Shown piece after piece: positions 1 to 38,330 of a DNA stretch of 50,040 nucleotides. A model generated the notes under the pieces. That model was not told the DNA's origin. It saw nothing but the letters and a program-made list of their open reading frames with translations, and did no database searches. Every line of letters starts with the position of its first letter. The first letter of the stretch is position 1. This DNA comes from a virus (lineage: Duplodnaviria; Heunggongvirae; Uroviricota; Caudoviricetes). The DNA is taken from the IMG/VR virus record IMGVR_UViG_2529293039_000013. The stretch is one strand, 5' to 3'. A program made the position numbers and the translations under genes.

Positions 1-420
1 ATGACGGATTATCAGCCATACAGGAAAGGAACTGTGCTTGCCCCAACTGGACCATGCAATCATCTTCATGTGATTTGTAATGATCCTGTTTATTACCCCG
101 TTAACGATTGTTATTGTGTTTTAGTTGTTAATATTTCTAGTATCAAGGATGGTGTCCCCCACGATCCGTCTTGCGTCTTGAATTCTGGTGATCATCGCTT
201 TATCAAGCATCCAAGTTATGTTGTTTACGCTGAAGCTATAATTTGGCGAGTGGATAACATGGTTAGAAAGCAGCGATCGGGTGAGATTTCTGTTCATGAT
301 GATATGCCAGAAGCTACATTCAATAGAATTCTGGACGGTTTTGATATCTCTGATGAAGTTACGCCAAAGAACCTTAAATTTAAAAATAAATATTGCGTAT
401 CATCTATTGATGATGAGTAA
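1..420 (+). CDS. hypothetical protein, no recognisable family; may be 5'-partial at window edge
   Basis: 139-codon ORF in track; lower GC than neighbouring phage genes; converges on minus-strand early operon. Confidence 0.35.
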   Translation: MTDYQPYRKGTVLAPTGPCNHLHVICNDPVYYPVNDCYCVLVVNISSIKDGVPHDPSCVLNSGDHRFIKHPSYVVYAEAIIWRVDNMVRKQRSGEISVHDDMPEATFNRILDGFDISDEVTPKNLKFKNKYCVSSIDDE

Positions 421-459
421 ACAACAGGAATTGTTTCGGTATAACTTCTGGAGTTTTCT

Positions 460-633
460 ATGGAAGATCAAAAAGCAACCAAGCCACAGGTTAAGTTCGA
501 CACAATGAAAGCATTCGTAGGTATGGGTGCTGCTGTTGAAGTTCTGATGAAGGCTGCTCCTAATGCGTTCACTCACGCTACTGTCTCTGGTAAAGAGCAG
601 CAGGGTAAGCTTCGTCGTCTCAAAGCAGCATGA
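460..633 (+). CDS. small hypothetical protein (57 aa)
   Basis: ATG preceded by GGAG; ORF ends about 20 nt before a hairpin terminator; below track length cut-off. Confidence 0.3.
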   Translation: MEDQKATKPQVKFDTMKAFVGMGAAVEVLMKAAPNAFTHATVSGKEQQGKLRRLKAA

Positions 634-652
634 TCATAGCTGGTGCTTTTTG

Positions 653-680
653 AAAACCCGCCTTCAGGCGGGTTTTTTCT
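653..680. terminator. bidirectional intrinsic terminator between convergent genes
   Basis: hairpin cccgcc-ttca-ggcggg flanked by an A-run upstream and a T-run downstream. Confidence 0.6.
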
Positions 681-989
681 TTAGTGATTTTCTTTGCCCT
701 TCTGTTTGACTGTTCTGACCTGTTCCCACTCGATACGTCCTTCTTCTCGCCTTTTGTCTATGTATTCCGCAAGATCCTGAATATTGATGCAACGTTTTGC
801 TTTTTGTGATGTGCCGATGCGATATGTTGGAACGGGCAACTTACAAGCGTTTGCTTTTGCTTCTGCCGTGGCTGGACTCATACCAAAGTACTTTTGGCTA
901 ACTGCTGAGAGTTCAATGTTTGGGGTATTGAATTCAGCCATCAGTAAAAACAAGGTGTTCATAATTTTCTCCATCAAAACCGGCTGCAC
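681..989 (-). CDS. excisionase-like DNA-binding protein (PrtN/Xis-like); start codon uncertain
   Basis: small basic protein at distal end of early-left operon; sequence recalls prophage excisionase-like family. Confidence 0.45.
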   Translation of the reverse strand: MQPVLMEKIMNTLFLLMAEFNTPNIELSAVSQKYFGMSPATAEAKANACKLPVPTYRIGTSQKAKRCINIQDLAEYIDKRREEGRIEWEQVRTVKQKGKENH

Positions 990-998
990 CCGGGAAAA

Positions 999-1574
999 TC
1001 ATAATTCTGTGCTGGTGGCAGGAATTAATTTCTGCCAGATAGCGGAAACATATTTTGCCTGATGACGGGCATCAGCCAGGGCGTTGTGCCGTTCGCCATC
1101 GAAAGGCATGTCCATTTTGGGGTCGAATCCGATGGAACGCCCAAGCGTAACGATCGTGCGTACATCGTGGTCATTCCAGTACGCCCACGGGCAGATTTGT
1201 CCTGCTCGCTCGTAAGCTCCACGTAAAATTACGTTGTCGAAGGTGGCCCCGTTACCCCAGACTTTTAAATATTTCGTATTGTCTGCGTGCCGGTTAATGA
1301 AATGGTTTAGTTCTGAGAGAGCATCGCTGATCGACAAAGTATCATCAATACAGATTGCAGCTCGCGCTTCAGGGCTTTGTTTCAACCACCACAGGATGGT
1401 ATCGCCGTCAGGTGTAGCTCCTTGCTTCATAGCACTGTCTAGGCTGACAACCGCATAGAATTCTTGTCCGATGTCTCCGGTTTCTGGAGTGAAGAACACC
1501 GCGCCAATGGAAACGATCGGTGCATCCTTATTTTTCCCCATCGTCTCAAGGTCGATCATTAAGTTGTTCATCAC
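999..1574 (-). CDS. phage 3'-5' exonuclease (DnaQ-like fold)
   Basis: N-terminal IDLETMG motif typical of DEDD exonucleases; ORF from track. Confidence 0.65.
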   Translation of the reverse strand: MMNNLMIDLETMGKNKDAPIVSIGAVFFTPETGDIGQEFYAVVSLDSAMKQGATPDGDTILWWLKQSPEARAAICIDDTLSISDALSELNHFINRHADNTKYLKVWGNGATFDNVILRGAYERAGQICPWAYWNDHDVRTIVTLGRSIGFDPKMDMPFDGERHNALADARHQAKYVSAIWQKLIPATSTEL

Positions 1575-2215
1575 TTCACCTCCTGCGGCGGTTCCGGTAG
1601 CGGCATCCAGTGAGTTGCTTGCTCAATACCATTACCCGGCTTAATCGTTGCATCTCCGCGCCGAAAGGTGCTTCCGGTATAGCGTGCGGAGCATATTAGC
1701 GGTTCAACCAGAGAGCTATCGAAATTCACCGAAATAAGCACGTTCTGGCCCTTTTCAGGCATTCGATCACTACAGCTTATCCAACCATCCGGAGTTACCG
1801 GAGAGTTGCCGGGTTCTTTAATGTGCAAGCGAGGCTCACCATCTTTTGGTTCAGGCCACTGGCGCTTCATGTTGATCTTCAATTTATCTTCCATAGCAGC
1901 GGTAATTTCAGCATCGCTGATGCCAGCACGGCGCTGTGCATCCCACAACAGAAACTGCATATCAGCCCACTCGCCAAGATCGTCTGGTTCGGCTGCGGCT
2001 TCCAGTGCCTCTTTTGAGAGATGTTTCAGCGGACCAATGGGGCCAACGCAGCCAAATGTGGAGTCAGACCATTTGGCATGCTCGTGGCGAATCTGTTCGC
2101 GTTCCAGTGATGCCAGTGCAATTCGTGCCAGTTCCATTTGTTCGCCACGAGTAAGTCCGTTATCAAGCGGATTTTTAATGAATAATTTGATACGTTCTTT
2201 GGTTATAGCGCTCAT
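1571..2215 (-). CDS. MazG-like nucleotide pyrophosphohydrolase domain protein with C-terminal DUF551-like region
   Basis: overlapping stop/start with neighbour; family recalled from prophage early regions. Confidence 0.5.
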   Translation of the reverse strand: MSAITKERIKLFIKNPLDNGLTRGEQMELARIALASLEREQIRHEHAKWSDSTFGCVGPIGPLKHLSKEALEAAAEPDDLGEWADMQFLLWDAQRRAGISDAEITAAMEDKLKINMKRQWPEPKDGEPRLHIKEPGNSPVTPDGWISCSDRMPEKGQNVLISVNFDSSLVEPLICSARYTGSTFRRGDATIKPGNGIEQATHWMPLPEPPQEVK

Positions 2216-2216
2216 A

Positions 2217-2897
2217 TCACTCTCCTTTGATGCGAATGCCAGCGGCGCGGATTGCAGCGATGACTTCAGAAACTTTGTATGCCATTACCGTTTGGTAATC
2301 ATCGTGATAATCTGTTCGATGAAGCATGCTGCTACGTTCCGGGAGCGATATTTCCCGAGCATCCAGTTCCTTAACGCGTTCCTCCAGTTCGTAGACCCTG
2401 CATTGTTCTCTATCATCAATCAGATATAACCCAAGACATTCGCTTTCTACCCAACCGCCAAAATCATGATCGTAACGCTCACATGAAAACTCACCGTCAC
2501 CGTCCTTTGTTGGAATGGTGTAACTATCTAATGGGCCACCATATGTCGGCACATTCCCCAATGTTGGATGCTCAATCCACATGAAAAATGCACGTCCGGT
2601 TATTGGGCAAATATCTGGCCGCCATTGGTTACGAACAGCCTTGGTTTCGGATAATTCTTCAGCGTGTTGTTTTACTTCCTCAAGCTCAACTCTCAGCTTC
2701 CCAACCGTAAGAGCAATATCCTCGTTCTCCTGGTCGCGGCGTTTGATGTATTGCTGGTTTCTTTCCCGTTCATCCAGCAGTTCCAGCACAATCGATGGTG
2801 TTACCAGCTCATGGAAAAGGTCCGCGTCAAATCCCCAGTCGTCATGCATTTCCTGCTCTGCCGCCTCACGCAGTGCCTGGTAATTAATTTCGCTCAC
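2217..2897 (-). CDS. Ea22-like family protein
   Basis: acidic coiled-coil protein in early-left operon; family assignment from memory. Confidence 0.5.
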   Translation of the reverse strand: MSEINYQALREAAEQEMHDDWGFDADLFHELVTPSIVLELLDERERNQQYIKRRDQENEDIALTVGKLRVELEEVKQHAEELSETKAVRNQWRPDICPITGRAFFMWIEHPTLGNVPTYGGPLDSYTIPTKDGDGEFSCERYDHDFGGWVESECLGLYLIDDREQCRVYELEERVKELDAREISLPERSSMLHRTDYHDDYQTVMAYKVSEVIAAIRAAGIRIKGE

Positions 2898-3532
2898 TGG
2901 TTGCCTCCTTTGCGAAGCTCAGCGGCGAAGGCTACTGCGTGATCATGATGTTCAAGCGTGTATGCACACTCCGCAAACATCTCCACGCCCTGCGCCCGGA
3001 CTTCAGCCAGGAAAGCATCGGTGGCTGGCGTTTCCCGTGAACGGTAAGACCAAACAATGTCGTCTGTTTCACTGGGTTCTTCATGAGAGCAATTTGGGCA
3101 GACAGCAGTACAACCAGCATGATCTTCTATGAGCATCTTCAGCCACGAGTTCTCCTCCGCCAGCGTCACGCGACTGGCCTCCAGTTCTGCTACGCGCTGT
3201 TTTGCAGCATCCAGTTCAATCGACAATTTTTCCAACTGCTCTTTATGCTTTTTATATTCCTGATATGCGTGCCAAGACTGACCTTTGCGCACACTATCAG
3301 TGATATCAGCAACCTGCTCTGGTGTTAGCGTGGTCAGTGGCTGTGCTGGGAAAATAAGCACTTTCCCGGAATCCCAATCAAAACCAGCATGAATTGACTG
3401 AACCTCAACTGAAGGTGTTGAACCAATGCTGCCAGGCGAATGAACAACGATCGTTACATCCATATCGCGACGATGGCTGTGGTTGTTGGACAAAATACGA
3501 TTCACCAACTCAGAAAATTTGGAGAATTTCAT
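2894..3532 (-). CDS. Ea22-like family protein (second copy)
   Basis: coiled-coil central region, cysteine pairs, overlapping stop/start with neighbours. Confidence 0.45.
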   Translation of the reverse strand: MKFSKFSELVNRILSNNHSHRRDMDVTIVVHSPGSIGSTPSVEVQSIHAGFDWDSGKVLIFPAQPLTTLTPEQVADITDSVRKGQSWHAYQEYKKHKEQLEKLSIELDAAKQRVAELEASRVTLAEENSWLKMLIEDHAGCTAVCPNCSHEEPSETDDIVWSYRSRETPATDAFLAEVRAQGVEMFAECAYTLEHHDHAVAFAAELRKGGNQ

Positions 3533-3540
3533 GCGGAGCC

Positions 3541-3951
3541 TCAGTATGTAAAATAGACAGTTGCCACGCCGTTATAGTGATCAAACGATACGGCATTTAC
3601 TTCGTAGCTGGCAGGGAGCTTCGATCCGAGAACGTATCCGGGCCACGTTTTCCATGGAATTTCTCTGCGCTCACTATCGCCATATACCGTACATCCCAGA
3701 GAGCCTACAGCTTCATTAGAACGCGTGCCGCACGTTATGAATCCCAGATTTTGCTTACTGCTCTTAATGGTGATTGGGTGAACGCTGGCTGATGCATTAG
3801 CAGCACGCTGTGCCTGTTGGTTTGCGATATTCGCAGAGTTCGCAGCAGCTACAGCAGCCGTAGTCGCGGCGGTAGAGGCTACAATAGCTGCTGAAGCATG
3901 CACTTGTTGGATATTCACCAACAATGCCGCGACAAAAATCATCTTCTTCAC
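3541..3951 (-). CDS. putative secreted protein with N-terminal signal peptide
   Basis: N-terminus MKKMIFVAALLVNIQQVHA resembles a Sec signal peptide; Ala/Asn-rich linker. Confidence 0.5.
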   Translation of the reverse strand: MKKMIFVAALLVNIQQVHASAAIVASTAATTAAVAAANSANIANQQAQRAANASASVHPITIKSSKQNLGFITCGTRSNEAVGSLGCTVYGDSERREIPWKTWPGYVLGSKLPASYEVNAVSFDHYNGVATVYFTY

Positions 3952-4298
3952 TTGTCAGCTCCTTTGCGAATCTGTTCCGCCCATTCTTCAAGGGATTTCT
4001 CCGCATATTCACCGGACAGGCCATCAATCGGGTACGGTTCATTAGCCAACTCTTCTTTCGCTGACAGAATCATGCGTGTAACGTCGAAAACTTCACGCAA
4101 AGACTTATTGATAAATCCGTGATTGAAAGCAGCAGCAAGACGGCTTGCGGTATAGTTAATACCCTCGTTGCGAGCCTCAGCACGTACTTCATCGAATTTA
4201 CGCACCAGATACTCAGCATTTGTTTCATTCACTTTCAGATCTCGCGGTACACATTTCCCGCGAAGAAACCCTTCCATTTCGAAAACATTCATGCGCAT
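3948..4298 (-). CDS. hypothetical protein
   Basis: ORF from track; start overlaps the upstream gene end. Confidence 0.45.
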   Translation of the reverse strand: MRMNVFEMEGFLRGKCVPRDLKVNETNAEYLVRKFDEVRAEARNEGINYTASRLAAAFNHGFINKSLREVFDVTRMILSAKEELANEPYPIDGLSGEYAEKSLEEWAEQIRKGADK

Positions 4299-4852
4299 TT
4301 GCGTAACTCCGATAACTCGTTAAAACGTTCCATAAACATCCCATAGGCATGGCCTGGCGACAGTGGAATAACTTTGAACATCTCTGTTGCCGGGATACCT
4401 TCCAGTACAGGCCAGAAAGAGCCATCATCAAGCCCGAGATCGCGGCGTTCGGTTGCCAGCATAATGAGATCGGCATATTTCACTGGCGTGCTCATAACAG
4501 GAGGTAACCCGTATTTCTCACGGATTACGGCGTCTATTTTTTCTTCCATCTGTTTATAGTCAGGAAGAAGGCGTTTCAGTGGCGCGGGGATGTCCTGACA
4601 ATACGCTTCTGTTGCATCATGCATTAACGCTTCAAAAGCAAACTCCTCCGGAACCAGTTTGCTGCAAAGCACCGCATGTTGGGCGACGCTGTAGAAGTGT
4701 GAAAGATGCCCTGCAAAGCGACAGATATTTGAGAGGGAAACTGCGATATCGTTAATCACGATGTCGTCTTTATTTATCCTGTCATAATAAAAATGCTTCC
4801 CGGAAAAAGTTTTAATAAATGACATTTTGTTCTCCACGTATATGCGCTGCAC
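4289..4852 (-). CDS. HD-domain phosphohydrolase (YfdR-like 5'-deoxynucleotidase family)
   Basis: H...HD metal-binding motif (AQHAVLCSK...MHDATEAY). Confidence 0.65.
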   Translation of the reverse strand: MQRIYVENKMSFIKTFSGKHFYYDRINKDDIVINDIAVSLSNICRFAGHLSHFYSVAQHAVLCSKLVPEEFAFEALMHDATEAYCQDIPAPLKRLLPDYKQMEEKIDAVIREKYGLPPVMSTPVKYADLIMLATERRDLGLDDGSFWPVLEGIPATEMFKVIPLSPGHAYGMFMERFNELSELRKCA

Positions 4853-4952
4853 CGCGCTGAATTCTGGTAAAAGGAAGCCCTCACCATCCGGTGATTATTG
4901 AGTTAATTACGTTTCCATAAATGCCCCCGCAGGGGCATTTGCAGTAATGAAA

Positions 4953-5777
4953 TCAGGCGGTGAAAGTACCAATAAAGGTTTCGACTTTGCTGTCTTTGAA
5001 TTTCTCAACAAGCAGATCACGAAATTCGTTAGCCATTTCTTCCTGCACTGCTTCCAGCTGAATAATGCGCAGAACCAGTACAGGGCGATCACCAGTGATA
5101 ATGCTGAGTCGTAATTTAAATGGACGTTCTTTCAGGCCTTCAAACGGAACGCATTTAAATTCAAATGCCACTGGCATAATGTCTTTGGTCTTCGCTTCGA
5201 CAGACTCCATCAGGGAGCGTTTGCCGCTGAAGTCATTGTCTTCAAAATCAGCAGTCTGGTTCGCTTCAATTGTGATTTTACGGACTGCCGCAGCCGCTTT
5301 TGTTGCCTGAATGGCGTCACCATTAGCATCAAAGCCCACAAGGTAGTCGGCCCAGTCTTCAATCCATTCTGCCAGTGACTTCTGGGAGTTACGCTCGCCG
5401 TTAACAGACAACAGAGCAGAGAACGGTGCTGTCTTTTTCAGTTTGAGGGTGGCGGTGTTATCTGCGTGACCTGGTTCATCAATAGTACCCAGGTTAAGCA
5501 CACTGACGGCTCGCATATTATCGGCATCGATAAAGCAGCGGGTGCCTTCATCTGCAAGATCTTTAGAATAACGGGTAAAGTCATCGATGCTGGCAGTGGA
5601 AAGCGCACCACGGAAACGGAAGCGATTTAAATTAAATTTTTCCAGATCATGAATGCGGAAATTCTCAGGCAATGCCACAGCATCGGCACCAATCTTACTG
5701 ATAATTTCATTAACACCCTGAGCAGAAATAAGGGCATGGATTTGATTAATTGCGGTTGCGTCTAAGTTCTGAGACAT
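4953..5777 (-). CDS. YfdQ-like protein (DUF2303 family)
   Basis: 274-aa ORF matching my recollection of E. coli CPS-53 prophage YfdQ; adjacent to YfdR-like gene. Confidence 0.6.
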
Positions 5778-5842
5778 AATAAGTCCTCACTATATAAAGA
5801 TATTCAGTGATGAGATAAATAATCAGTTAATTAAGAACGATA

Positions 5843-6205
5843 TTAATGACCTGCTGCGCGTAGTTTTCCGTCAGGTTCACCGGCAAGAGTCAGTAATTGT
5901 CCCTGGTCTTCCTGCAGAATAGTCAGGCGACCACCGCGATTGACATACATCGGTGTTTCGGTGGTGTCTTCTTCGGAAATTTTCCCGCGGTTAGTCGGGC
6001 GAACATATGAGAGTTTGTGTTTGATTTTCACACGGTTCTCATCAAATGGTTCGATTTCCAGGTTGAGCGAGACCTTACCTTTGGTTTTCGTGTTCATCAC
6101 ACCGGAAGCGACTTCACTGAGAGCTGCGCCGATTTTGGTTTCAAATACGCCGCCGTCCAGCTCCCCGATAAATGCCTGCACATCAGTACTGCGTTCGCTA
6201 GCCAT
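5843..6205 (-). CDS. hypothetical protein, first gene of early-left operon
   Basis: internal start MASERSTD preceded by GAGGAG; track ORF extends further upstream without RBS support. Confidence 0.5.
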   Translation of the reverse strand: MASERSTDVQAFIGELDGGVFETKIGAALSEVASGVMNTKTKGKVSLNLEIEPFDENRVKIKHKLSYVRPTNRGKISEEDTTETPMYVNRGGRLTILQEDQGQLLTLAGEPDGKLRAAGH

Positions 6206-6547
6206 TTTGCTGCTCCTCATCATATCGACCCTGCAAGGTCGGTTAGTTTCTCCACAAAACAGAGAAGAACACCTGCGGTGGCAGCCGCCCGGATGGATTG
6301 GGTTATGAGCCCGTCGTCCGGTGATGTTCTTCTCTGTTTTGTAAAAAGAGCGGTACCAGCCGGAAGCAAGTGTACAAACTGGTACCGCCAAAGCAGTGGC
6401 TGTTGTGGTGACCGGTGCTGATCTCCGGCTTGCGGTTATTTCAGACTCTCACGGGCGTTTAATTGCCCCGCCGAACAGCTCTTTTCCGCAATAGCTGCAA
6501 TGTCTTTCGCGCATCAGCCTGCGCATTCACCACAACTCTAAAAACAA

Positions 6548-6600
6548 ATGTAGGATATCCAACATGCGAGTGTCAAGAGTTTATGTTGGTTATCCTACAT
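6548..6600 (-). promoter_or_regulatory. leftward early promoter (PL-like) with two 18-bp operator palindromes
   Basis: minus-strand TTGACA, 17-nt spacer, CTACAT; operators atgtaggatatccaacat and atgttggttatcctacat. Confidence 0.5.
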
Positions 6601-6616
6601 AAAAAGATAGGCTCAT

Positions 6617-6642
6617 AAAAAAACCGGGGATACCCCGGTTTT
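6617..6642 (-). terminator. intrinsic terminator downstream of repressor gene
   Basis: hairpin ccgggg-ata-ccccgg with flanking A and T runs, just 3' of cI stop. Confidence 0.5.
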
Positions 6643-6662
6643 GCGATAGTGAGGAAGATGTG

Positions 6663-7316
6663 TCAAAAATCCATTATTACTTGTTTGACAAGACCAACTA
6701 TTCTGCAGTTCTCACCGCATTCAATAGTTTTATAGTTAGGATTTAGTGGGACGAGATACCTGTTCGGCCAGTCCTCAACAAATTTTTTGAGTGTCGCTTC
6801 TTGCCCACCATTGATATGGGCAACAACGATTTTTCCGTTAATACACTCTGTATCAATAATATCTGGCTCTACGATAACGATAGAACCTTCTGGTATCGAT
6901 GGTGAGCCGAGGGGATTGGTCATTGAATCACCACGGACCCGTAGTGCAAATGCCATTTCTGATACAAGGGCGGTAGTATAAACCCACTCTTCAGCATCTT
7001 CTTTCCTGACACCAGGCTCCGTCATTGTCCATGAACCCGCCTGAACCCACGAGATTAGGGGGACTTTTTTAACTGCGAATATTTCAGGTTTTAGATTTAT
7101 CTTTGGTTCAGGCGAGCCTTTTCCGCTAACAAGCCACAGAGGATCGCATTTAAGTGCGTTGGCTAGGGCTTGAAGGTTGGCTCCATTTGGTTGGTAGTCG
7201 TCCTTTTCCCATCCAGTAACCGTGACACGGTTCACACCAGTCAAATCAGCCAGTGCTTGTTGTGTCAGGTTCAGTTCTTTTCGCCTTTGGCGAATACGAT
7301 CACTCATGTTCATCAT
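6663..7316 (-). CDS. cI: CI-type phage repressor (HTH domain plus S24 LexA-like peptidase domain)
   Basis: N-terminal HTH (LTQQALADLTGVNRVTVTGWE), C-terminal Ser/Lys autocleavage domain (GDSM...K). Confidence 0.85.
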   Translation of the reverse strand: MMNMSDRIRQRRKELNLTQQALADLTGVNRVTVTGWEKDDYQPNGANLQALANALKCDPLWLVSGKGSPEPKINLKPEIFAVKKVPLISWVQAGSWTMTEPGVRKEDAEEWVYTTALVSEMAFALRVRGDSMTNPLGSPSIPEGSIVIVEPDIIDTECINGKIVVAHINGGQEATLKKFVEDWPNRYLVPLNPNYKTIECGENCRIVGLVKQVIMDF

Positions 7317-7323
7317 GTAGGCA

Positions 7324-7385
7324 ATCCTACCACATGCCCATGTAGGATTCTTGACATTGGCATGTTGGATATCCTACATTTCTGC
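7324..7385 (+). promoter_or_regulatory. OR/PR-like region: rightward promoter overlapping operators
   Basis: TTGACA, 17-nt spacer, CTACAT on plus strand; operator atgttggatatcctacat; split palindrome atcctac...gtaggat. Confidence 0.55.
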
Positions 7386-7411
7386 TTAACGTAATTTAAC
7401 GGGAGACAGAA

Positions 7412-7609
7412 ATGCGGAAATCCGACGTGATTAATTATTTCGGCGGAGTTTGTAAAACCGCCGAAGCCCTAGGTATTAAGCATCCGTCTGTTTCAGAGTG
7501 GCCTGAGATTATTCCTGAAGGCCGAGCGTACCAGTTAGAAAAAATTACTAACGGGAAACTGAAAGTTGACGTGTCTTTATATCAAAAGACTAACAGTGCT
7601 GCGGCATAA
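7412..7609 (+). CDS. cro: Cro-like DNA-binding regulator
   Basis: 65-aa protein divergent from cI across the operator region. Confidence 0.7.
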   Translation: MRKSDVINYFGGVCKTAEALGIKHPSVSEWPEIIPEGRAYQLEKITNGKLKVDVSLYQKTNSAAA

Positions 7610-7636
7610 AAACACCACAGAAATGAGGAATTAACC

Positions 7637-8221
7637 GTGGGTAAAGAACCTGAATGGAAAGTTGATAAACAACCAGCATGGCTGGTGGCAGCAATACGAA
7701 GAACGATTGCTGATTTACCTCATGGCTATGAGGAAGCAGCAGAAATTCTTGGTTTGTATAAATCTGATGATATCACCCCAGCGAAAGATCAATTGCATAA
7801 CAGACTGCGTAGCGGTGGGGATCAAATTTTTCCACTTGAGTGGGCCATGGTTTTACAGGATGCCAGTGGTACCAGGCATGTAACGGATGCGATAGCGCGT
7901 CGTAGTAATGGGGTGTTTGTGCCGCTGGTGGACATTGATGACATTGACAATGGTGACATTAATCAGCGGCTGATGGAGTCAATAGAATGGATTGGCAAGC
8001 ATTCCCAGTACTTACGCAAGGCAACTGCTGATGGAGTTATTGACCAGGCTGAGCGTGAGCAAATCGAAGAGAACAGCTACCAAGTAATGGCGAAGTGGCA
8101 GGAGCATTTAACACTGTTATTTCGTGTTTTTTGTGCACCGGAAAAGAGTAACGCCCGCGAGTGTGCAGCTCCGGGCGTCGTGGCGTCGATTGCTTCTGGT
8201 TGTGGAGAAACTAACGCATGA
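7637..8221 (+). CDS. putative CII-like regulatory protein (family uncertain)
   Basis: position immediately after cro; GTG start; stop overlaps next gene start (ATGA). Confidence 0.35.
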   Translation: MGKEPEWKVDKQPAWLVAAIRRTIADLPHGYEEAAEILGLYKSDDITPAKDQLHNRLRSGGDQIFPLEWAMVLQDASGTRHVTDAIARRSNGVFVPLVDIDDIDNGDINQRLMESIEWIGKHSQYLRKATADGVIDQAEREQIEENSYQVMAKWQEHLTLLFRVFCAPEKSNARECAAPGVVASIASGCGETNA

Positions 8222-9378
8222 ACAGTTTAACGGCAAATAACCGTTTGTCGCAACAGCTGGTGGTCAGCGTCGCTGAACACCTGTTGTTACGGCATGAATG
8301 CAGATTACCAAATCACCTGGCTGTAAGTAACCACAGAGAACTTTACCTGACTGTGGGGGGCGAGTTGTGCAGGAACTTAACCGCTGGTTTCGTGACGGAA
8401 GAGGGCTTTATGTCCATGTTATTCGTTGGGAGCCAGAAACACAGCGCGTTATCTATCTTCGCAAAGACTACCCGCATGAGTGCTTTAGTCCTTTGTGGAA
8501 ATTCAGGCGTGATTTTGTTGAGTGTGAAGGACCACCAGCATATTGATTCTGCAATTCCGGGACGTTACACTGCTCAGGCACCTTATAAAGCGGGTGCCGG
8601 GATTGGCGTCCTGAAATTGTCAACGGCGATGTATGACGCGCCAGCGTCTTTTTTATCGTCCGCATTTGCTCACATCCAGATTATGGTGGGCTGGGCGGGG
8701 GCACCGAAAGGTGCGCCGGTCTCCGTTGACGCCGGTTACGCCAACCCCGTCCAGTTCACCACCAGTGAAATTGGCGTTTCCGGTGGTGGAAGTTTTTCAC
8801 TGTCAACGGAGGCTGCCATCATGGCTACGATCCCAGCCCTCACTCAACCTGAAATCACCATTGACAACGGCCAGGCCGTTACCACTTCTTTGGCTGTTGC
8901 CAACTTCTTCTCCAAGCGTCACGACGATGTGCTGAAAAAGATCCGCACTCTGGATTGTTCCCCAGAGTTTTGTGCCCGCAATTTTGCGGAGACATCGATT
9001 TCGGTAAATCAACCGAACGGTGGTACACGCAAGCTCCCTTGCTATCAAATCACACGAGACGGTTTTGCGTTTCTTGCTATGGGTTTCACGGGTAAACGTG
9101 CTGCCCGGTTCAAAGAGGCATACATAAATGCCTTTAACCAGATGGAGAAACAGCTTTCAAAGCCCGCTGTACCGAGCGACGTTGCACATAACGCCAGCGT
9201 TCTCTGTTCCTACATTTCATCAATTCATCAGGTCTGGCTGCAGCAGCTTTATCCTATGTTGGCAAAAGCCGAATCTCCGCTGGCTGTTAGCTTATATGAC
9301 TATATTAATGATGCTTCGGCGCTGGCCAGTCTCATAAATTTGTCGCTGAACCCTTCAGAGGTAAGGGGGCGCAAATGA
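8218..9378 (+). CDS. Rha-family phage regulatory protein with about 200-aa N-terminal extension
   Basis: Rha-like motif (TTSLAVANFFSKRHDDVLKKIR) in C-terminal half; internal ATG at 8821 has strong GGAGG RBS. Confidence 0.55.
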   Translation: MNSLTANNRLSQQLVVSVAEHLLLRHECRLPNHLAVSNHRELYLTVGGELCRNLTAGFVTEEGFMSMLFVGSQKHSALSIFAKTTRMSALVLCGNSGVILLSVKDHQHIDSAIPGRYTAQAPYKAGAGIGVLKLSTAMYDAPASFLSSAFAHIQIMVGWAGAPKGAPVSVDAGYANPVQFTTSEIGVSGGGSFSLSTEAAIMATIPALTQPEITIDNGQAVTTSLAVANFFSKRHDDVLKKIRTLDCSPEFCARNFAETSISVNQPNGGTRKLPCYQITRDGFAFLAMGFTGKRAARFKEAYINAFNQMEKQLSKPAVPSDVAHNASVLCSYISSIHQVWLQQLYPMLAKAESPLAVSLYDYINDASALASLINLSLNPSEVRGRK

Positions 9379-33230: not shown

Positions 33231-35789
33231 TCTTGTTATTGACCTGAGTCTGGATGCGGTCCGTTTCGATGAGCAGATGAGCCGGGTAAGGCGTCATTTT
33301 TCCGGACTGGAGACTGACGCCAGAAAAACCGCCGGTGTTGTTGAGCAGAACCTGAGTCGTCAGGCGCTGGCTGCACAAAAAGCCGGGATTTCCGTCGGGC
33401 AGTATAAAGCGGCCATGCGAACCCTGCCCGCACAGTTTACGGATATCGCCACGCAGCTTGCCGGTGGTCAGAATCCCTGGCTGATCCTGCTGCAACAGGG
33501 CGGTCAGGTGAAGGACTCCTTCGGCGGGATGATCCCCATGCTCAGGGGACTTGCCGGTGCGATCACCCTGCCGATGGTCGGGGTCACCTCGCTGGCGGTG
33601 GCGACAGGTGCGCTGGCGTACGCCTGGTACCAGGGGGATTCCACGCTTTCAGCGTTTAATAAAACCCTGGTTCTTTCCGGTAATCAGTCCGGACTGACTG
33701 CCGATCGCATGCTGACGCTCTCCAGAGCCGGACAGGCCGCAGGGCTGACGTTTAACCAGGCGAGTGAGTCACTGGCAGCCCTGGTGAATGCCGGTGTGCG
33801 TGGTGGTGAACAGTTTGATGCCATCAACCAGAGTGTCGCGCGTTTTGCTTCTGCATCCGGTGTGGAGGTGGACAAGGTTGCAGAGGCTTTCGGAAAACTG
33901 ACTACCGACCCGACGTCGGGACTGATGGCGATGGCGCGCCAGTTCCGTAACGTGACGGCAGAGCAGATTGCGTATGTTGCACAGCTGCAGCGTTCCGGAG
34001 ACGAGGCCGGGGCATTGCAGGCGGCGAACGATATCGCCACGAAAGGCTTTGATGAGCAGACCCGTCGCCTGAAAGAAAACATGGGAACACTGGAGACCTG
34101 GGCGGATAAAACAGGGAAGGCATTCAAATCGATGTGGGATGCCATTCTGGATATCGGTCGTCCTGAGTCCTCAGCGGATATGCTCGCCAGTGCACAGAAG
34201 GCATTTGATGAGGCGGATAAAAAATGGCAGTGGTACCAGAGCCGGAGCCAGCGCCGGGGAAAACCGCCTCTTTCCGGGCCAACCTTCAGGGCGCATGGAA
34301 TGACCGGGAAAATGCCCGTCTGGGGCTGGCAGCGGCCACGCTGCAGTCGGATATGGAAAAAGCCGGTGAACTGGCCGCCAGGGACCGGGCCGAACGGGAC
34401 GCATCACAGCTGAAGTATACCGGAGAGGCGCAGAAGGCGTATGAGCGTCTGCTGACGCCGCTGGAGAAATATACCGCCCGTCAGGAAGAACTGAATAAGG
34501 CCCTGAAAGACGGGAAAATCCTGCAGGCGGATTACAACACGCTGATGGCGGCGGCGAAAAAGGATTATGAATCGACGCTGAAAAAGCCGAAGTCGTCAGG
34601 AGTCAAAGTGTCAGCCGGTGAGCGTCAGGAAGACCAGGCGCATGCTGCCCTGCTGGCGCTTGAAACCGAGCTCCGGACGCTGGAAAAACACAGCGGTGCG
34701 AATGAGAAAATCAGCCAGCAGCGTCGCGATTTATGGAAAGCGGAAAATCAGTATGCGGTCCTGAAAGAGGCAGCCACGAAACGGCAGTTATCTGAGCAGG
34801 AAAAATCCCTGCTGACCCATGAGAAAGAGACGCTGGAGTACAAACGCCAGCTGGCTGAGCTGGGAGACAAAGTTGAACACCAGAAACGGCTGAATGAGCT
34901 GGCACAGCAGGCTGCGCGGTTTGAACAGCAGCAGAGTGCGAAGCAGGCGGCAATCAGTGCCCAGGCGCGGGGCCTCACCGACCGTCAGGTGCAGCGGGAG
35001 TCGGAAGAGCAGCGCCTTCGTGACGTGTACGGTGATAATCCGGATGCGCTGGCGAAGGCCACATCTGCACTGAAGAACACCTGGTCTGCGGAGGAGCAGC
35101 TTCGTGGAAGCTGGATGGCCGGTCTGAAGTCCGGCTGGGGCGAGTGGGCAGAAAGTGCGACGGACAGTTTTTCGCAGGTTAAAAGCGTGGCCACGCAGAC
35201 CTTTGACGGTATTGCACAGAATATGGCAGCGATGCTGACCGGCAGCGAACAGAGCTGGCGTGGTTTCACCCGTTCTGTGCTCTCCATGCTGACAGAGATT
35301 TTTCTGAAGCAGGCCATGGTGGGGATTGTCGGGAGTATTGGCAGCGCCATGGGTGGTGCTTTCGGTGGTGGGGCGTCTGCCTCCACGGGGACGGCCATTC
35401 AGGCTGCGGCGGCGAACTTCCATTTCGCGACCGGAGGATTTACGGGAACCGGTGGCAAATACGAACCTGCCGGTATTGTCCACCGCGGGGAGTTTGTCTT
35501 CACGAAGGAGGCAACCAGCCGGATTGGCGTCGGCAACCTGTATCGTCTGATGCGCGGGTATGCGGAAGGTGGTTATGTGGGCGGTGCCGGAAGTCCGGCG
35601 CAGATGCGGCGGGCGGAAGGCATTAGTTTTAATCAGAACAATCACGTGGTGATTCAGAACGACGGCACCAACGGACAGGCGGGGCCGCAGCTGATGAAGG
35701 CGGTGTATGACATGGCCCGCAAGGGGGCGCAGGATGAGATTCAGGCGCAGATGCGTGATGGCGGCGTCTTTTCCGGAGGCAGGCGATGA
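33211..35789 (+). pseudogene. tail tape measure protein H, interrupted by a frameshift
   Basis: track ORFs 33211-34413 and 34224-35789 in different frames; both match lambda gpH; junction at an A-run. Confidence 0.8.
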
Positions 35790-36115
35790 AAACATTTCGC
35801 TGGAAAGTGAAGCCGGATATGGAGGTGAACTCGCAGCCATCGGTGCGTGAAGTGCGTTTTGGTGACGGGTATTCGCAGCGTATGGCGGCGGGGCTGAATG
35901 CTGACCTGAAAACATACCGTGTGACGCTTTCCGTGACCCGGGAGGAGGCCCGACATCTGGAGGCATTCCTGGCAGAGCACGGTGGCTGGAAGGCGTTTCT
36001 GTGGACACCGCCTTATGCCTGGCGGCAGATAAAGGTGACCTGTGCCGCCTGGTCATCACGGGTTCGCATGCTGCGGGTTGAATTCAGCGCGGAGTTTAAG
36101 CAGGTGGTGAACTGA
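35786..36115 (+). CDS. tail tip protein M
   Basis: 109 aa; MKTFRWKVKP matches lambda gpM. Confidence 0.85.
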   Translation: MKTFRWKVKPDMEVNSQPSVREVRFGDGYSQRMAAGLNADLKTYRVTLSVTREEARHLEAFLAEHGGWKAFLWTPPYAWRQIKVTCAAWSSRVRMLRVEFSAEFKQVVN

Positions 36116-36813
36116 TGCAGGATATTCACGAAGAAAGTCTGAACGAGTCGGTTAAATCAGAGCAGTCACCGCGGGTGGTACTCTGGGAAATCGACCTGAC
36201 GGTACAGGGTGGTGAGCGGTATTTTTTCTGCAATGAGCTGAATGAAAAAGGGGAGGCGGTTACCTGGCAGGGGCGGCAATATCAGGCATACCCGATTGAC
36301 GGCAGTGGCTTTGAGATGAACGGGAAGGGCAGCAGTGCCCGCCCGTCGCTGACGGTGTCGAATCTGTTCGGTCTGGTCACCGGAATGGCGGAGGACCTGC
36401 AGAGCCTGGTGGGGGCCACGGTGGTCCGCCGCCGGGTGTATGCCCGTTTTCTGGATGCGGTGAATTTTGTGGCGGGCAATCCGGAAGCGGACCCGGAGCA
36501 GGAGCTGAGCGACCGCTGGGTGGTGGAGCAGATGTCAGAGCTGACGGCCATGACAGCCTCGTTTGTGCTGGCAACACCGACGGAGACGGACGGAGCGCTG
36601 TTTCCCGGTCGCATCATGCTGGCGAACACCTGTATGTGGGATTACCGGGGAGATGAATGCGGGTATAACGGTCCTGCGGTGGCGGATGAGTTCGATAAAC
36701 CCACCACCGATATCCGTAAGGACAGATGCAGCAAGTGCATGCGCGGGTGTGAGATGCGCGGCATGGTGGCTAATTTTGGCGGTTTCCTTTCCATTAACAA
36801 ACTTTCGCAGTAA
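36115..36813 (+). CDS. tail tip protein L
   Basis: 232 aa; matches lambda gpL incl. C-terminal FGGFLSINKLSQ. Confidence 0.85.
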   Translation: MQDIHEESLNESVKSEQSPRVVLWEIDLTVQGGERYFFCNELNEKGEAVTWQGRQYQAYPIDGSGFEMNGKGSSARPSLTVSNLFGLVTGMAEDLQSLVGATVVRRRVYARFLDAVNFVAGNPEADPEQELSDRWVVEQMSELTAMTASFVLATPTETDGALFPGRIMLANTCMWDYRGDECGYNGPAVADEFDKPTTDIRKDRCSKCMRGCEMRGMVANFGGFLSINKLSQ

Positions 36814-36818
36814 ATCCA

Positions 36819-37562
36819 ATGACACAGACAGAATCAGCGATTCTGGCGCATGCCCGGCGGTGTGTGCCTGCGGAGTCGTGCGGCTTCGTGGTGAGAACGC
36901 CGGAGGGGGAGCGGTATATCCCTTGTGTGAATATCTCTGCAGAGCCTGAGGCATATTTTCGTATTGCCCCGGAAGACTGGCTGCGGGCAGAGATGCAGGG
37001 GGAGATTGTGGCGCTGGTTCACAGTCGTCCCGGTGGTCTGCCCTGGCTGAGCGAGGCTGACCGGCGGCTGCAGATAAAAAGCGCACTGCCCTGGTGGCTG
37101 GTCAGCCGGGGTGACATTCACAAATTCCGCTGCGTTCCGCACCTGACCGGACGGCGCTTTGAACACGGGGTGACGGACTGTTACACCCTGTTCCGGGATG
37201 CATACCATCTGGCGGGGATTGAGATGCCGGATTTTCACCGTGAGGATGAGTGGTGGCGCAACGGTCAGAACCTGTACCTGGACAATATGGAGGCAACGGG
37301 CTTTTACCGGGTGCCCCTGTCCTCTGCACAGGCGGGCGATATCCTGCTGTGCTGCTTTGGCGCATCGGTGGCCAATCATGCCGCCATTTACTGCGGCAAC
37401 GGTGAACTGCTTCACCATCTGCCTGAACAACTGAGTAAACGGGAGAGGTATTCCGAAAAATGGCAACGACGAACGCATTCTGTCTGGCGTCACCGCCACT
37501 GGCACGCATCTGCCTTCACGGGGATTTGCAACGATTTGGCCGCCGCCTCAGCCTGTATGTGA
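36819..37562 (+). CDS. tail tip assembly protein K; 3' extent uncertain, overlaps I
   Basis: N-terminus TESAILAHARRC...ESCGFVV matches lambda gpK. Confidence 0.75.
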   Translation: MTQTESAILAHARRCVPAESCGFVVRTPEGERYIPCVNISAEPEAYFRIAPEDWLRAEMQGEIVALVHSRPGGLPWLSEADRRLQIKSALPWWLVSRGDIHKFRCVPHLTGRRFEHGVTDCYTLFRDAYHLAGIEMPDFHREDEWWRNGQNLYLDNMEATGFYRVPLSSAQAGDILLCCFGASVANHAAIYCGNGELLHHLPEQLSKRERYSEKWQRRTHSVWRHRHWHASAFTGICNDLAAASACM

Positions 37563-38140
37563 ACACGGCAGCGGAAGCCATCCGGGCGCTGTCGTTACAG
37601 GTGCCGGGATTCCGCCGTCAGATGAACGAAGGCTGGTACCAGATACGTATTGCCGGTGAAGACACGGCACCGGAGGTGGTGTACGCCCGCCTTCACGAAC
37701 AGCTGGGTGAGGGAACGGTCATCCACATTGTGCCGCGACTGGCCGGGGCCGGAAAGGGTGGACTGCAGATTGTGTTGGGGGCGGCAGCCATCGTGGGCTC
37801 TTTCTTCACTGCCGGGGCATCAATGGCGTTATGGGGTTCAGCCCTGGCAGCCGGTGGTTTTTCTGCCACCACGATGCTGTTTTCTCTGGGGGCCAGCATG
37901 ATTCTGGGTGGTGTGGCTCAGATGCTGGCCCCGAAGGCTAAAGTACCGGAGTACAAAAGCACGGATAACGGCAGACAGAACACGTATTTTTCGTCACTGG
38001 ACAACATGATTGCCCAGGGGAACCCGATGCCGGTGCCTTACGGGGAAATGCTGGTTGGCTCCCGCCGTATATCCCAGGACATCAGTACCCGTGATGAAGG
38101 CGGGGGCGGAAAGGTCGTGGTTATCGGGCGGCAGGCATAA
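37460..38140 (+). CDS. tail tip assembly protein I
   Basis: ICLHGDLQRFGRR and C-terminal hydrophobic region match lambda gpI. Confidence 0.8.
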   Translation: MATTNAFCLASPPLARICLHGDLQRFGRRLSLYVNTAAEAIRALSLQVPGFRRQMNEGWYQIRIAGEDTAPEVVYARLHEQLGEGTVIHIVPRLAGAGKGGLQIVLGAAAIVGSFFTAGASMALWGSALAAGGFSATTMLFSLGASMILGGVAQMLAPKAKVPEYKSTDNGRQNTYFSSLDNMIAQGNPMPVPYGEMLVGSRRISQDISTRDEGGGGKVVVIGRQA

Positions 38141-38330
38141 AAGCGAAAAAATCCCGCAGTGCTCACGGACAGGAACTGCGGGAGCGTTACGAAGATTGAG
38201 TGTAAGGAATTATTCTTATGTCACGACAAAAACATTAACTCAGAGAGGGAGGATGTGCCGTTCTTTTCAGGGAGAAAGGATTTATCGTCCTGAGGAATAA
38301 AGGTAAGGGGCCCGCCCCTTACCTGACTGA

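Follow-up and report, generated by a model that had tools for sequence, protein, structure and literature searches.

The left end of the IMG/VR virus record IMGVR_UViG_2529293039_000013 (Caudoviricetes) raises the question of why the early-left operon of a prophage ends on an excisionase-like gene (xis) that is faced by two small plus-strand genes, and where the integrase gene is that might be expected in their place. The whole record of 50,040 nucleotides (nt) is referred to here as the window, and the question concerns its positions 1 to 680. For this region, an original prediction made from the sequence alone had described two convergent open reading frames (ORFs) of 139 and 57 amino acids (aa), both of unknown function. 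We regard the 139-aa ORF as a candidate toxin gene (panT), whose product would be neutralised by the protein PanA encoded directly upstream, and assign a probability of about 0.72 to this reading. The identification is based on an invariant linkage to panA, a predicted toxin-type fold, and a match to a published family. The missing integrase gene is ordinary for this phage family.

A two-gene operon cut by the window boundary

The window opens on the start codon of the 139-aa ORF, which is preceded in its operon by panA, a gene just beyond the window boundary. The source contig (AIFC01000020.1 of assembly GCA_000249215.2) is 100.000% identical to window positions 1-13,532 (locus L113) and, at the expected colinear position, to positions 35,183-50,040 (locus L127). 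On this contig, the TGA stop codon of panA is contained in the ATGA at window position 1, which corresponds to a 4-nt overlap of the two genes. PanA comprises 190 aa, matches the SocA_Panacea domain PF13274 (2e-19), and is designated "Panacea domain-containing protein" by the NCBI Prokaryotic Genome Annotation Pipeline (PGAP); a tblastn search revealed no copy of panA inside the window. Many IMG/VR provirus records (e.g., L028 and L030) start exactly at the start codon of panA, and the current one starts at that of panT.

The linkage of the two genes extends far beyond the source strain. panA was located upstream with a 4-nt overlap in all eight E. coli places inspected, and Shewanella, Vibrio, Proteus, and Pantoea also carry the pair, in genomic contexts that are unrelated to one another. 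Across the five genera these comprise a prophage end, a genomic island, a site beside the repressor gene of a prophage with a P2 gpA-type replication gene, a site after a tail fibre gene, and, in Pantoea phages, a position between the repressor and N genes. When one genome was scanned per species, a Panacea ORF was found directly upstream of the homologue in 30/30 tested loci from other species, which represent gamma-, alpha-, and betaproteobacteria. With the E. coli reference included, all 31 upstream ORFs encode Panacea proteins, and the estimated distance between panA and the toxin gene varies from an overlap of 5 nt to a gap of some tens of nucleotides at most.

Both plus-strand ORFs are real genes. 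Their orientation towards the excisionase-like gene, as originally proposed, was confirmed, and homologues of both ORFs are conserved in other genera. Phage Lys8385Vzw and many E. coli chromosomes match the first 1 kb of the window with 100% identity, positions 1-700 are covered to at least 80% in 205 of 5,426 complete E. coli genomes, and the assembly collection contains the identical 139-aa protein in 18,004 blocks. For the left 25 kb of the window, the best match among complete E. coli genomes reaches a coverage of 66%.

The homologues of the 139-aa protein, all of them annotated as hypothetical, have a length of about 126 to 150 aa and occur in Enterobacterales, Vibrio, Shewanella, methanotrophs, and alpha- and betaproteobacteria. 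Because the alignment of the family is conserved from position 6 on (P6, K9, G10, T11), the true start of the gene is the ATG at position 1 and not the GTG at position 34. The latter start was chosen by PGAP (128 aa, WP_014640052.1), and it drops 11 residues including the four conserved ones and also hides the ATGA overlap with panA. Near-invariant residues of the family are H21, H23, C26, D28, D55, C58, and H65, and the family has two conserved motifs of its own, HLH(V/I)(I/V)C(N/S)DP and G(D/E)HxF. In database comparisons, the protein matched only a PHROG of unknown function, and there was no meaningful match to Pfam, NCBIfam, or PADLOC. Sub-threshold matches of the 139-aa and 57-aa proteins to ICMT and DapC were rejected as noise.

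Predicted fold and probable assignment to a published family

A structure search on the 139-aa protein, which had been recommended together with a homology search, pointed to a relationship that the sequence methods missed. The predicted structure has the SH3-like barrel fold of the MazF/Kid/CcdB type, and the model contains two extra C-terminal helices (residues 104-131). For the 139-aa ORF, the "unknown function" is replaced by a candidate role as the toxin of a PanA-PanT pair; the 57-aa ORF (orf57) has no family annotation.

Panacea-neutralised toxins (PanT) were defined and sorted into clusters by Kurata et al. 2022 (PNAS 119:e2102212119; PMC8832971). In the available portion of their dataset, cluster T6 includes Pantoea septica LMG 5345, "Yersiniaceae bacterium 2016Iso4", and Proteus vulgaris FDAARGOS_556, with spacings of -4, -1, and -4 nt, respectively. 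Homologues of the 139-aa protein are located beside panA in Pantoea septica LMG 5345, strain 2016-Iso4, and Proteus, with overlaps of -4, -1, and -4 nt. The same portion of the dataset lists Pluralibacter, Photorhabdus, Halomonas, methanotrophs, Beggiatoa, and alphaproteobacteria as further taxa of T6, a range that, as far as these entries go, equals that of the 139-aa homologues. Within T6, PanT of P. moraviensis (WP_083201923.1; PanA, WP_083354365.1) was reported to be toxic and to inhibit protein synthesis specifically; its PanA neutralises the toxin and co-purifies with it, and HHpred related the toxin to the RNases EndoA/PemK/MazF (PMC8832971). This pair is marked "NotPhage" in the dataset entries available. 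Judged from the matching strains and gene spacings, window positions 1-420 very likely represent a T6-type panT, and the E. coli pair appears to be a further member of the published PanA-PanT kind with a predicted toxicity.

Layout of the left end and position of the integrase gene

The features of the left end of the window are as follows.
1..420, plus strand: panT candidate (139 aa, ATG start) from the ORF call; its start codon (ATG, 1-3) and the panA stop codon overlap.
460..633, plus strand: orf57 (57 aa, ATG start, GGAG 6 nt upstream of the ATG), the last gene of the plus-strand cassette.
652..677: intrinsic terminator hairpin between the convergent transcription units.
681..962, minus strand: PrtN-family excisionase-like gene (93 aa), with which the leftward early operon ends.

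The excisionase-like gene, placed at 681-989 by the original prediction, was borne out by matches of its product to PF11112 PrtN (4e-23) and to the "excisionase" family phrog_1300 (8e-40). It is named excisionase in phage mEp460 and "pyocin activator PrtN family protein" by PGAP. The interval 681-989 is the longest ORF; PGAP and other annotations use the ATG at 962, and the gene probably corresponds to 681-962.

The proposal of a shared bidirectional terminator was borne out in part. The hairpin at 652-677 consists of an 11-bp G+C-rich stem (GAAAACCCGCC-TTCA-GGCGGGTTTTT, then TCTTT), which is followed by UUUUUUCUUU on the plus strand. It is stable on both strands, with folding energies of -19.3 kcal/mol (z = -3.6) for the plus strand and -18.1 kcal/mol (z = -4.4) for the minus strand. 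On the minus strand, merely UUUU follows the stem, and a good U-tract is accordingly available for plus-strand transcripts only. An Rfam scan of window positions 1-1100 gave only sub-threshold, terminator-like matches that overlap this hairpin.

With respect to the integrase, the window indeed contains neither an integrase gene, as tblastn searches with five different tyrosine integrases found no match, nor either of the two attachment sites. The prophage end was correctly suspected beyond the window. On the source contig, panA is followed to the left by a dusA 5' fragment and the host genes zur, yjbJ, dinF, lexA, dgkA, and plsB. Phage DNA gives way to the displaced dusA 5' fragment about 254 nt upstream of the panA start, which places the prophage/host junction about 822 nt left of window position 1. 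The recommended leftward extension therefore recovered the dusA junction that marks the attachment site, and there was no integrase gene in the left flank of AIFC01000020.1. A promoter scan revealed one weak match upstream of panA that was no better than chance.

The expectation of an integrase gene beside xis turned out to be wrong for this phage family. In the genomes of the phages Lys8385Vzw, SKA5, and mEp460, the gene order is dinI (minus strand), the integrase gene int (minus strand), the phage attachment site attP with a phage-borne dusA 5' end, cargo genes (plus strand), and a PrtN-type xis (minus strand). Since attP lies between int and the cargo and xis genes, integration would bring int to the opposite end of the prophage, where it would adjoin dusA, and int is not found beside xis because it sits across attP in these phages. 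Integrases that are specific for dusA and adjoin this gene in the prophage were described by Farrugia et al. 2015 (NAR 43:4547; PMC4482086). The dusA-type integrase end is absent from the source contig, the right end of which abuts potB.

A variable cargo slot and orf57

The original prediction had also considered the two plus-strand ORFs as a possible moron, and this view agrees well with their position, since they are cargo-type genes in a variable slot between attP (or the left attachment site, attL, of the prophage) and xis. The slot is occupied by panAT and orf57 in the current element, and by a 177-aa gene and orf57 in mEp460 and Salmonella prophages. In phiSTEC1575-Stx2k (L069:308-1352), it contains a different Panacea gene (157 aa) and then an unrelated 182-aa gene, presumably a further PanAT pair whose toxin differs. 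In one E. coli genome (L006:6772-7806), panA, panT, and orf57 are accompanied by a 344-aa CoiA-like nuclease gene before xis, beside Mu-like baseplate genes.

orf57 is a separate small conserved phage gene and, as judged from its distribution among homologues, not a component of PanAT. Its product matches phrog_2741 (1e-34), no Pfam or NCBIfam model was matched, and PADLOC gave nothing meaningful. The homologues form 48 clusters, the named ones of which belong to Enterobacteriaceae and Hafnia, and most of them are exactly 57 aa long. They share the core FDT..AF.GMGAAVEVLMKAAP.AF and a basic tail. The AlphaFold2 model is poor (predicted local distance difference test score of 64), with one short helical stretch at residues 15-37. 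A gene of 177-179 aa is located upstream of orf57 in mEp460, in Salmonella dusA prophages, and in Hafnia phages (64% identity between E. coli and Hafnia); it has no Pfam match. The homology of mEp460 with the window begins at position 447, just upstream of the ribosome-binding site of orf57, and panAT therefore appears to have replaced the 177-aa gene, with orf57 left in place. The 177-aa partner was also considered as a divergent PanA or PanT and rejected, with hhalign probabilities of <0.3.

orf57 and the 177-179-aa gene constitute a two-gene module that is found in different phage slots (mEp460 gp23-gp24, L068:2784-3687; Salmonella, L131:2774-3674; Hafnia, L138:1551-3674). In Hafnia, it lies in the interval from the Q antiterminator gene to the holin gene, with a toxSAS-like RelA_SpoT-domain gene just upstream of it. 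The module could be another small toxin-antitoxin (TA) or defence module.

Proposed mechanism and competing explanations

In the mechanism that we propose, panA is probably translationally coupled to panT via the ATGA overlap. Free PanT would most likely cleave RNA, block translation, and thereby stop growth, and PanA would most likely bind and neutralise the toxin directly, as in type II systems; these steps are deduced from the published family. That PanT acts as an RNase is, in our assessment, somewhat better than an even bet. The pair would represent mobile cargo in the slot between attP/attL and xis of dusA-integrating lambdoid phages. Its location suggests that it would be expressed from the prophage and that it plausibly serves as an addiction or anti-phage (abortive infection) device. 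The small gene orf57, at the end of the cassette, would be co-transcribed with the pair and unrelated to it.

Several observations weigh against the identification of the 139-aa ORF as a MazF-like T6 toxin gene. At the sequence level, no link to MazF/PemK was recovered. A Pfam scan of the 139-aa protein gave no match at E ≤ 1, including PF02452 (MazF/PemK); a PDB profile search with the family returned nothing relevant and no MazF match at E ≤ 10; and hhalign of the family profile against E. coli MazF yielded a probability of 0.2. The fold assignment hence rests on the predicted structure. The catalytic residues of MazF are Arg29 and Thr52, and the His/Cys/Asp set of PanT is not obviously equivalent to this Arg/Thr pair, so that its chemistry may differ. 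The T6 assignment was matched by strains and gene spacing, not by accessions, T6 itself being a broad cluster derived with jackhmmer. Neither PanA nor PanT is covered by a PADLOC model, and there is consequently no documented defence role. Finally, some predicted PanAT pairs proved to be non-toxic, including an E. coli prophage pair of cluster T1 (PMC8832971).

The current E. coli prophage pair is not among the accessions listed in the available portion of that dataset, and WP_000458584, WP_014640052, and WP_000390073 are not among the entries listed in the accessible parts of the supplements of both Panacea/NetFlax papers. The P. moraviensis toxin was not among the 120 matches listed in a protein search with a wider profile.

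The non-toxic candidates are also an argument for the explanation that the pair is not a TA system at all, in which case the 139-aa protein would be a harmless phage accessory, such as a regulator or nucleic-acid binder, that travels with a Panacea protein. For the E. coli pair, toxicity is only predicted, and PADLOC did not respond to it. This explanation nevertheless appears doubtful to us, since the linkage to PanA is invariant over three proteobacterial classes with genes that overlap or abut, the predicted fold is a classical toxin fold, the module occupies typical moron or defence slots including the repressor-N position in Pantoea phages, and a validated toxin belongs to the same cluster. 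Two further explanations retain the TA system and alter the activity of the toxin. It is conceivable, if unlikely, that T6 PanT is not an RNase and that its own set of His/Cys/Asp residues (H21 to H65, as given above), which is possibly metal-binding, supports another chemistry on the MazF/CcdB scaffold; PanAT of E. coli would then be a phage-triggered abortive-infection defence. Rather unlikely, too, is a PanT that poisons gyrase in the manner of CcdB, or acts as some other non-RNase effector on the SH3-like barrel, and is still neutralised by PanA. The predicted fold is common to MazF, Kid, and CcdB.

The least probable explanation, to which we give very little credence, combines the 139-aa ORF and orf57 into one unit with orf57 as the partner or antitoxin. 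The two genes are adjacent on the same strand with a spacing of 39 nt and share one common terminator. However, the panAT loci of Shewanella, Vibrio, Proteus, and Pantoea are not followed by orf57; mEp460, Salmonella, and Hafnia have orf57 without panAT, and there it always comes after the 177-179-aa gene. The homology of mEp460 with the window begins shortly ahead of the ribosome-binding site of orf57. A PanA-neutralised PanT with orf57 as an independent neighbour thus remains our preferred reading.

An apparent hybrid prophage and other features of the window

The right end of the window abuts potB, potA, pepT, roxA, and phoQ in all 10 places inspected, and likewise on the source contig. In the near-identical strain GCA_900448265.1, which is represented by a 5.1-Mb contig, the two ends of the window are located in two separate prophages that are 3.2 Mb apart and have the same orientation. 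The identity to this genome is 98.2% over window positions 1-9,605 on the left side and 99.97% on the right side. As its ends belong to two different prophages, the 50-kb element appears to be a hybrid, in which the end of a dusA-type prophage that lacks the integrase gene is fused to the end of a prophage from the potB side, with the join located between about 13.5 and 35 kb of the window. We take the dusA/zur and potB loci to have the same orientation in the K-12 gene order; a single crossover would presumably delete about 1.5 Mb. The hybrid is probably a chimera of the draft assembly across sequence common to two lambdoid prophages; a real, more complex rearrangement is possible.

The remainder of the window contains several features that are independent of panAT. 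An IS21-family element (insertion sequence; istA, 340 aa; istB, 259-260 aa) is located at 43183-45137 between lom-like and tail-fibre genes, and an identical copy is present in a Dam-like gene of the dusA prophage of GCA_900448265.1. The gene for the host-specificity protein J (38992-42467) is split into ORFs of 917 aa and 256 aa, and close relatives have a single 1158-aa gene, which suggests a frameshift and hence a defective tail, either in the prophage or in the assembly. A type III effector cluster at 46871-50040 comprises an NleG-like gene (plus strand), EspW (minus strand, 352 aa), a name taken from the RefSeq annotation of a relative, NleG (minus strand, 216 aa), and a gene of the IpaB_EvcA/WxxxE family. 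The latter is annotated as "bfpT-regulated chaperone-like", and the window ends exactly on its stop codon. In the related phage Lys8385Vzw, the early-left gene Lys8385Vzw_33 (L001:7571-8137), which is of the DUF551 type, is labelled "valyl-tRNA synthetase", almost certainly a mis-annotation.

Implications for annotation

The current finding is mostly housekeeping, since the PanA-PanT kind has already been published, and yet it affects a very common "hypothetical protein" of E. coli prophages, which should be annotated as a candidate toxin partner of the adjoining "Panacea domain-containing protein". The start of panT should be set to the ATG that overlaps the panA stop codon instead of the PGAP start. 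When a window is cut at gene boundaries, the toxin and antitoxin genes of a pair can end up on different sides of the cut and an ordinary prophage end can seem anomalous, and boundary calls of IMG/VR proviruses at gene edges routinely clip or split the panAT cassette. The slot between attL and xis of dusA-integrating phages is a swap site for TA and other cargo and should therefore be useful in the search for defence systems.

Comparison with known systems

In the int-xis module of the lambda type, int adjoins xis in the same orientation by attP, an arrangement that is absent from the window. In the related phages, int is located past the cargo genes and attP and is transcribed away from them, and xis is of the PrtN type. 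As in dusA-specific elements, a displaced dusA 5' fragment borders the phage DNA at the left junction, both on the source contig and in relatives, and the related phages have int across attP, by the replacement dusA 5' end. The element differs from them in that the window contains no integrase gene and neither attachment site, and its right end belongs to the prophage beside potB.

As for the proteins, the sequence identity between the 139-aa protein and MazF or Kid (PemK) of the type II systems MazEF and Kis-Kid is just 9-17%, and the former has the two added C-terminal helices as well as its own motifs. The antitoxin is MazE or Kis in these systems, whereas the candidate antitoxin is a Panacea-domain protein in the current one. 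SocA-SocB of Caulobacter, a type VI TA system, is similar insofar as SocA and PanA both contain the Panacea domain (PF13274). However, PanA scores 14 bits on the NCBIfam SocA equivalog, with a cutoff of 190 bits, and SocB is a replication-clamp inhibitor that is unrelated to the 139-aa toxin candidate. SocA is a protease adaptor, and the data speak neither for nor against a corresponding mechanism of this PanA. The closest counterpart is the PanA-PanT system of cluster T6, with which the locus shares a PF13274 antitoxin gene upstream of an abutting or overlapping toxin gene, and a toxin of about 130-140 aa that lacks a CDD or Pfam match and has a MazF/PemK-like structure. In comparison with the P. 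moraviensis pair of this cluster, the E. coli pair is distinguished by its location in the attL-proximal cargo slot of a dusA-integrating lambdoid prophage and by the extra small gene that accompanies it.
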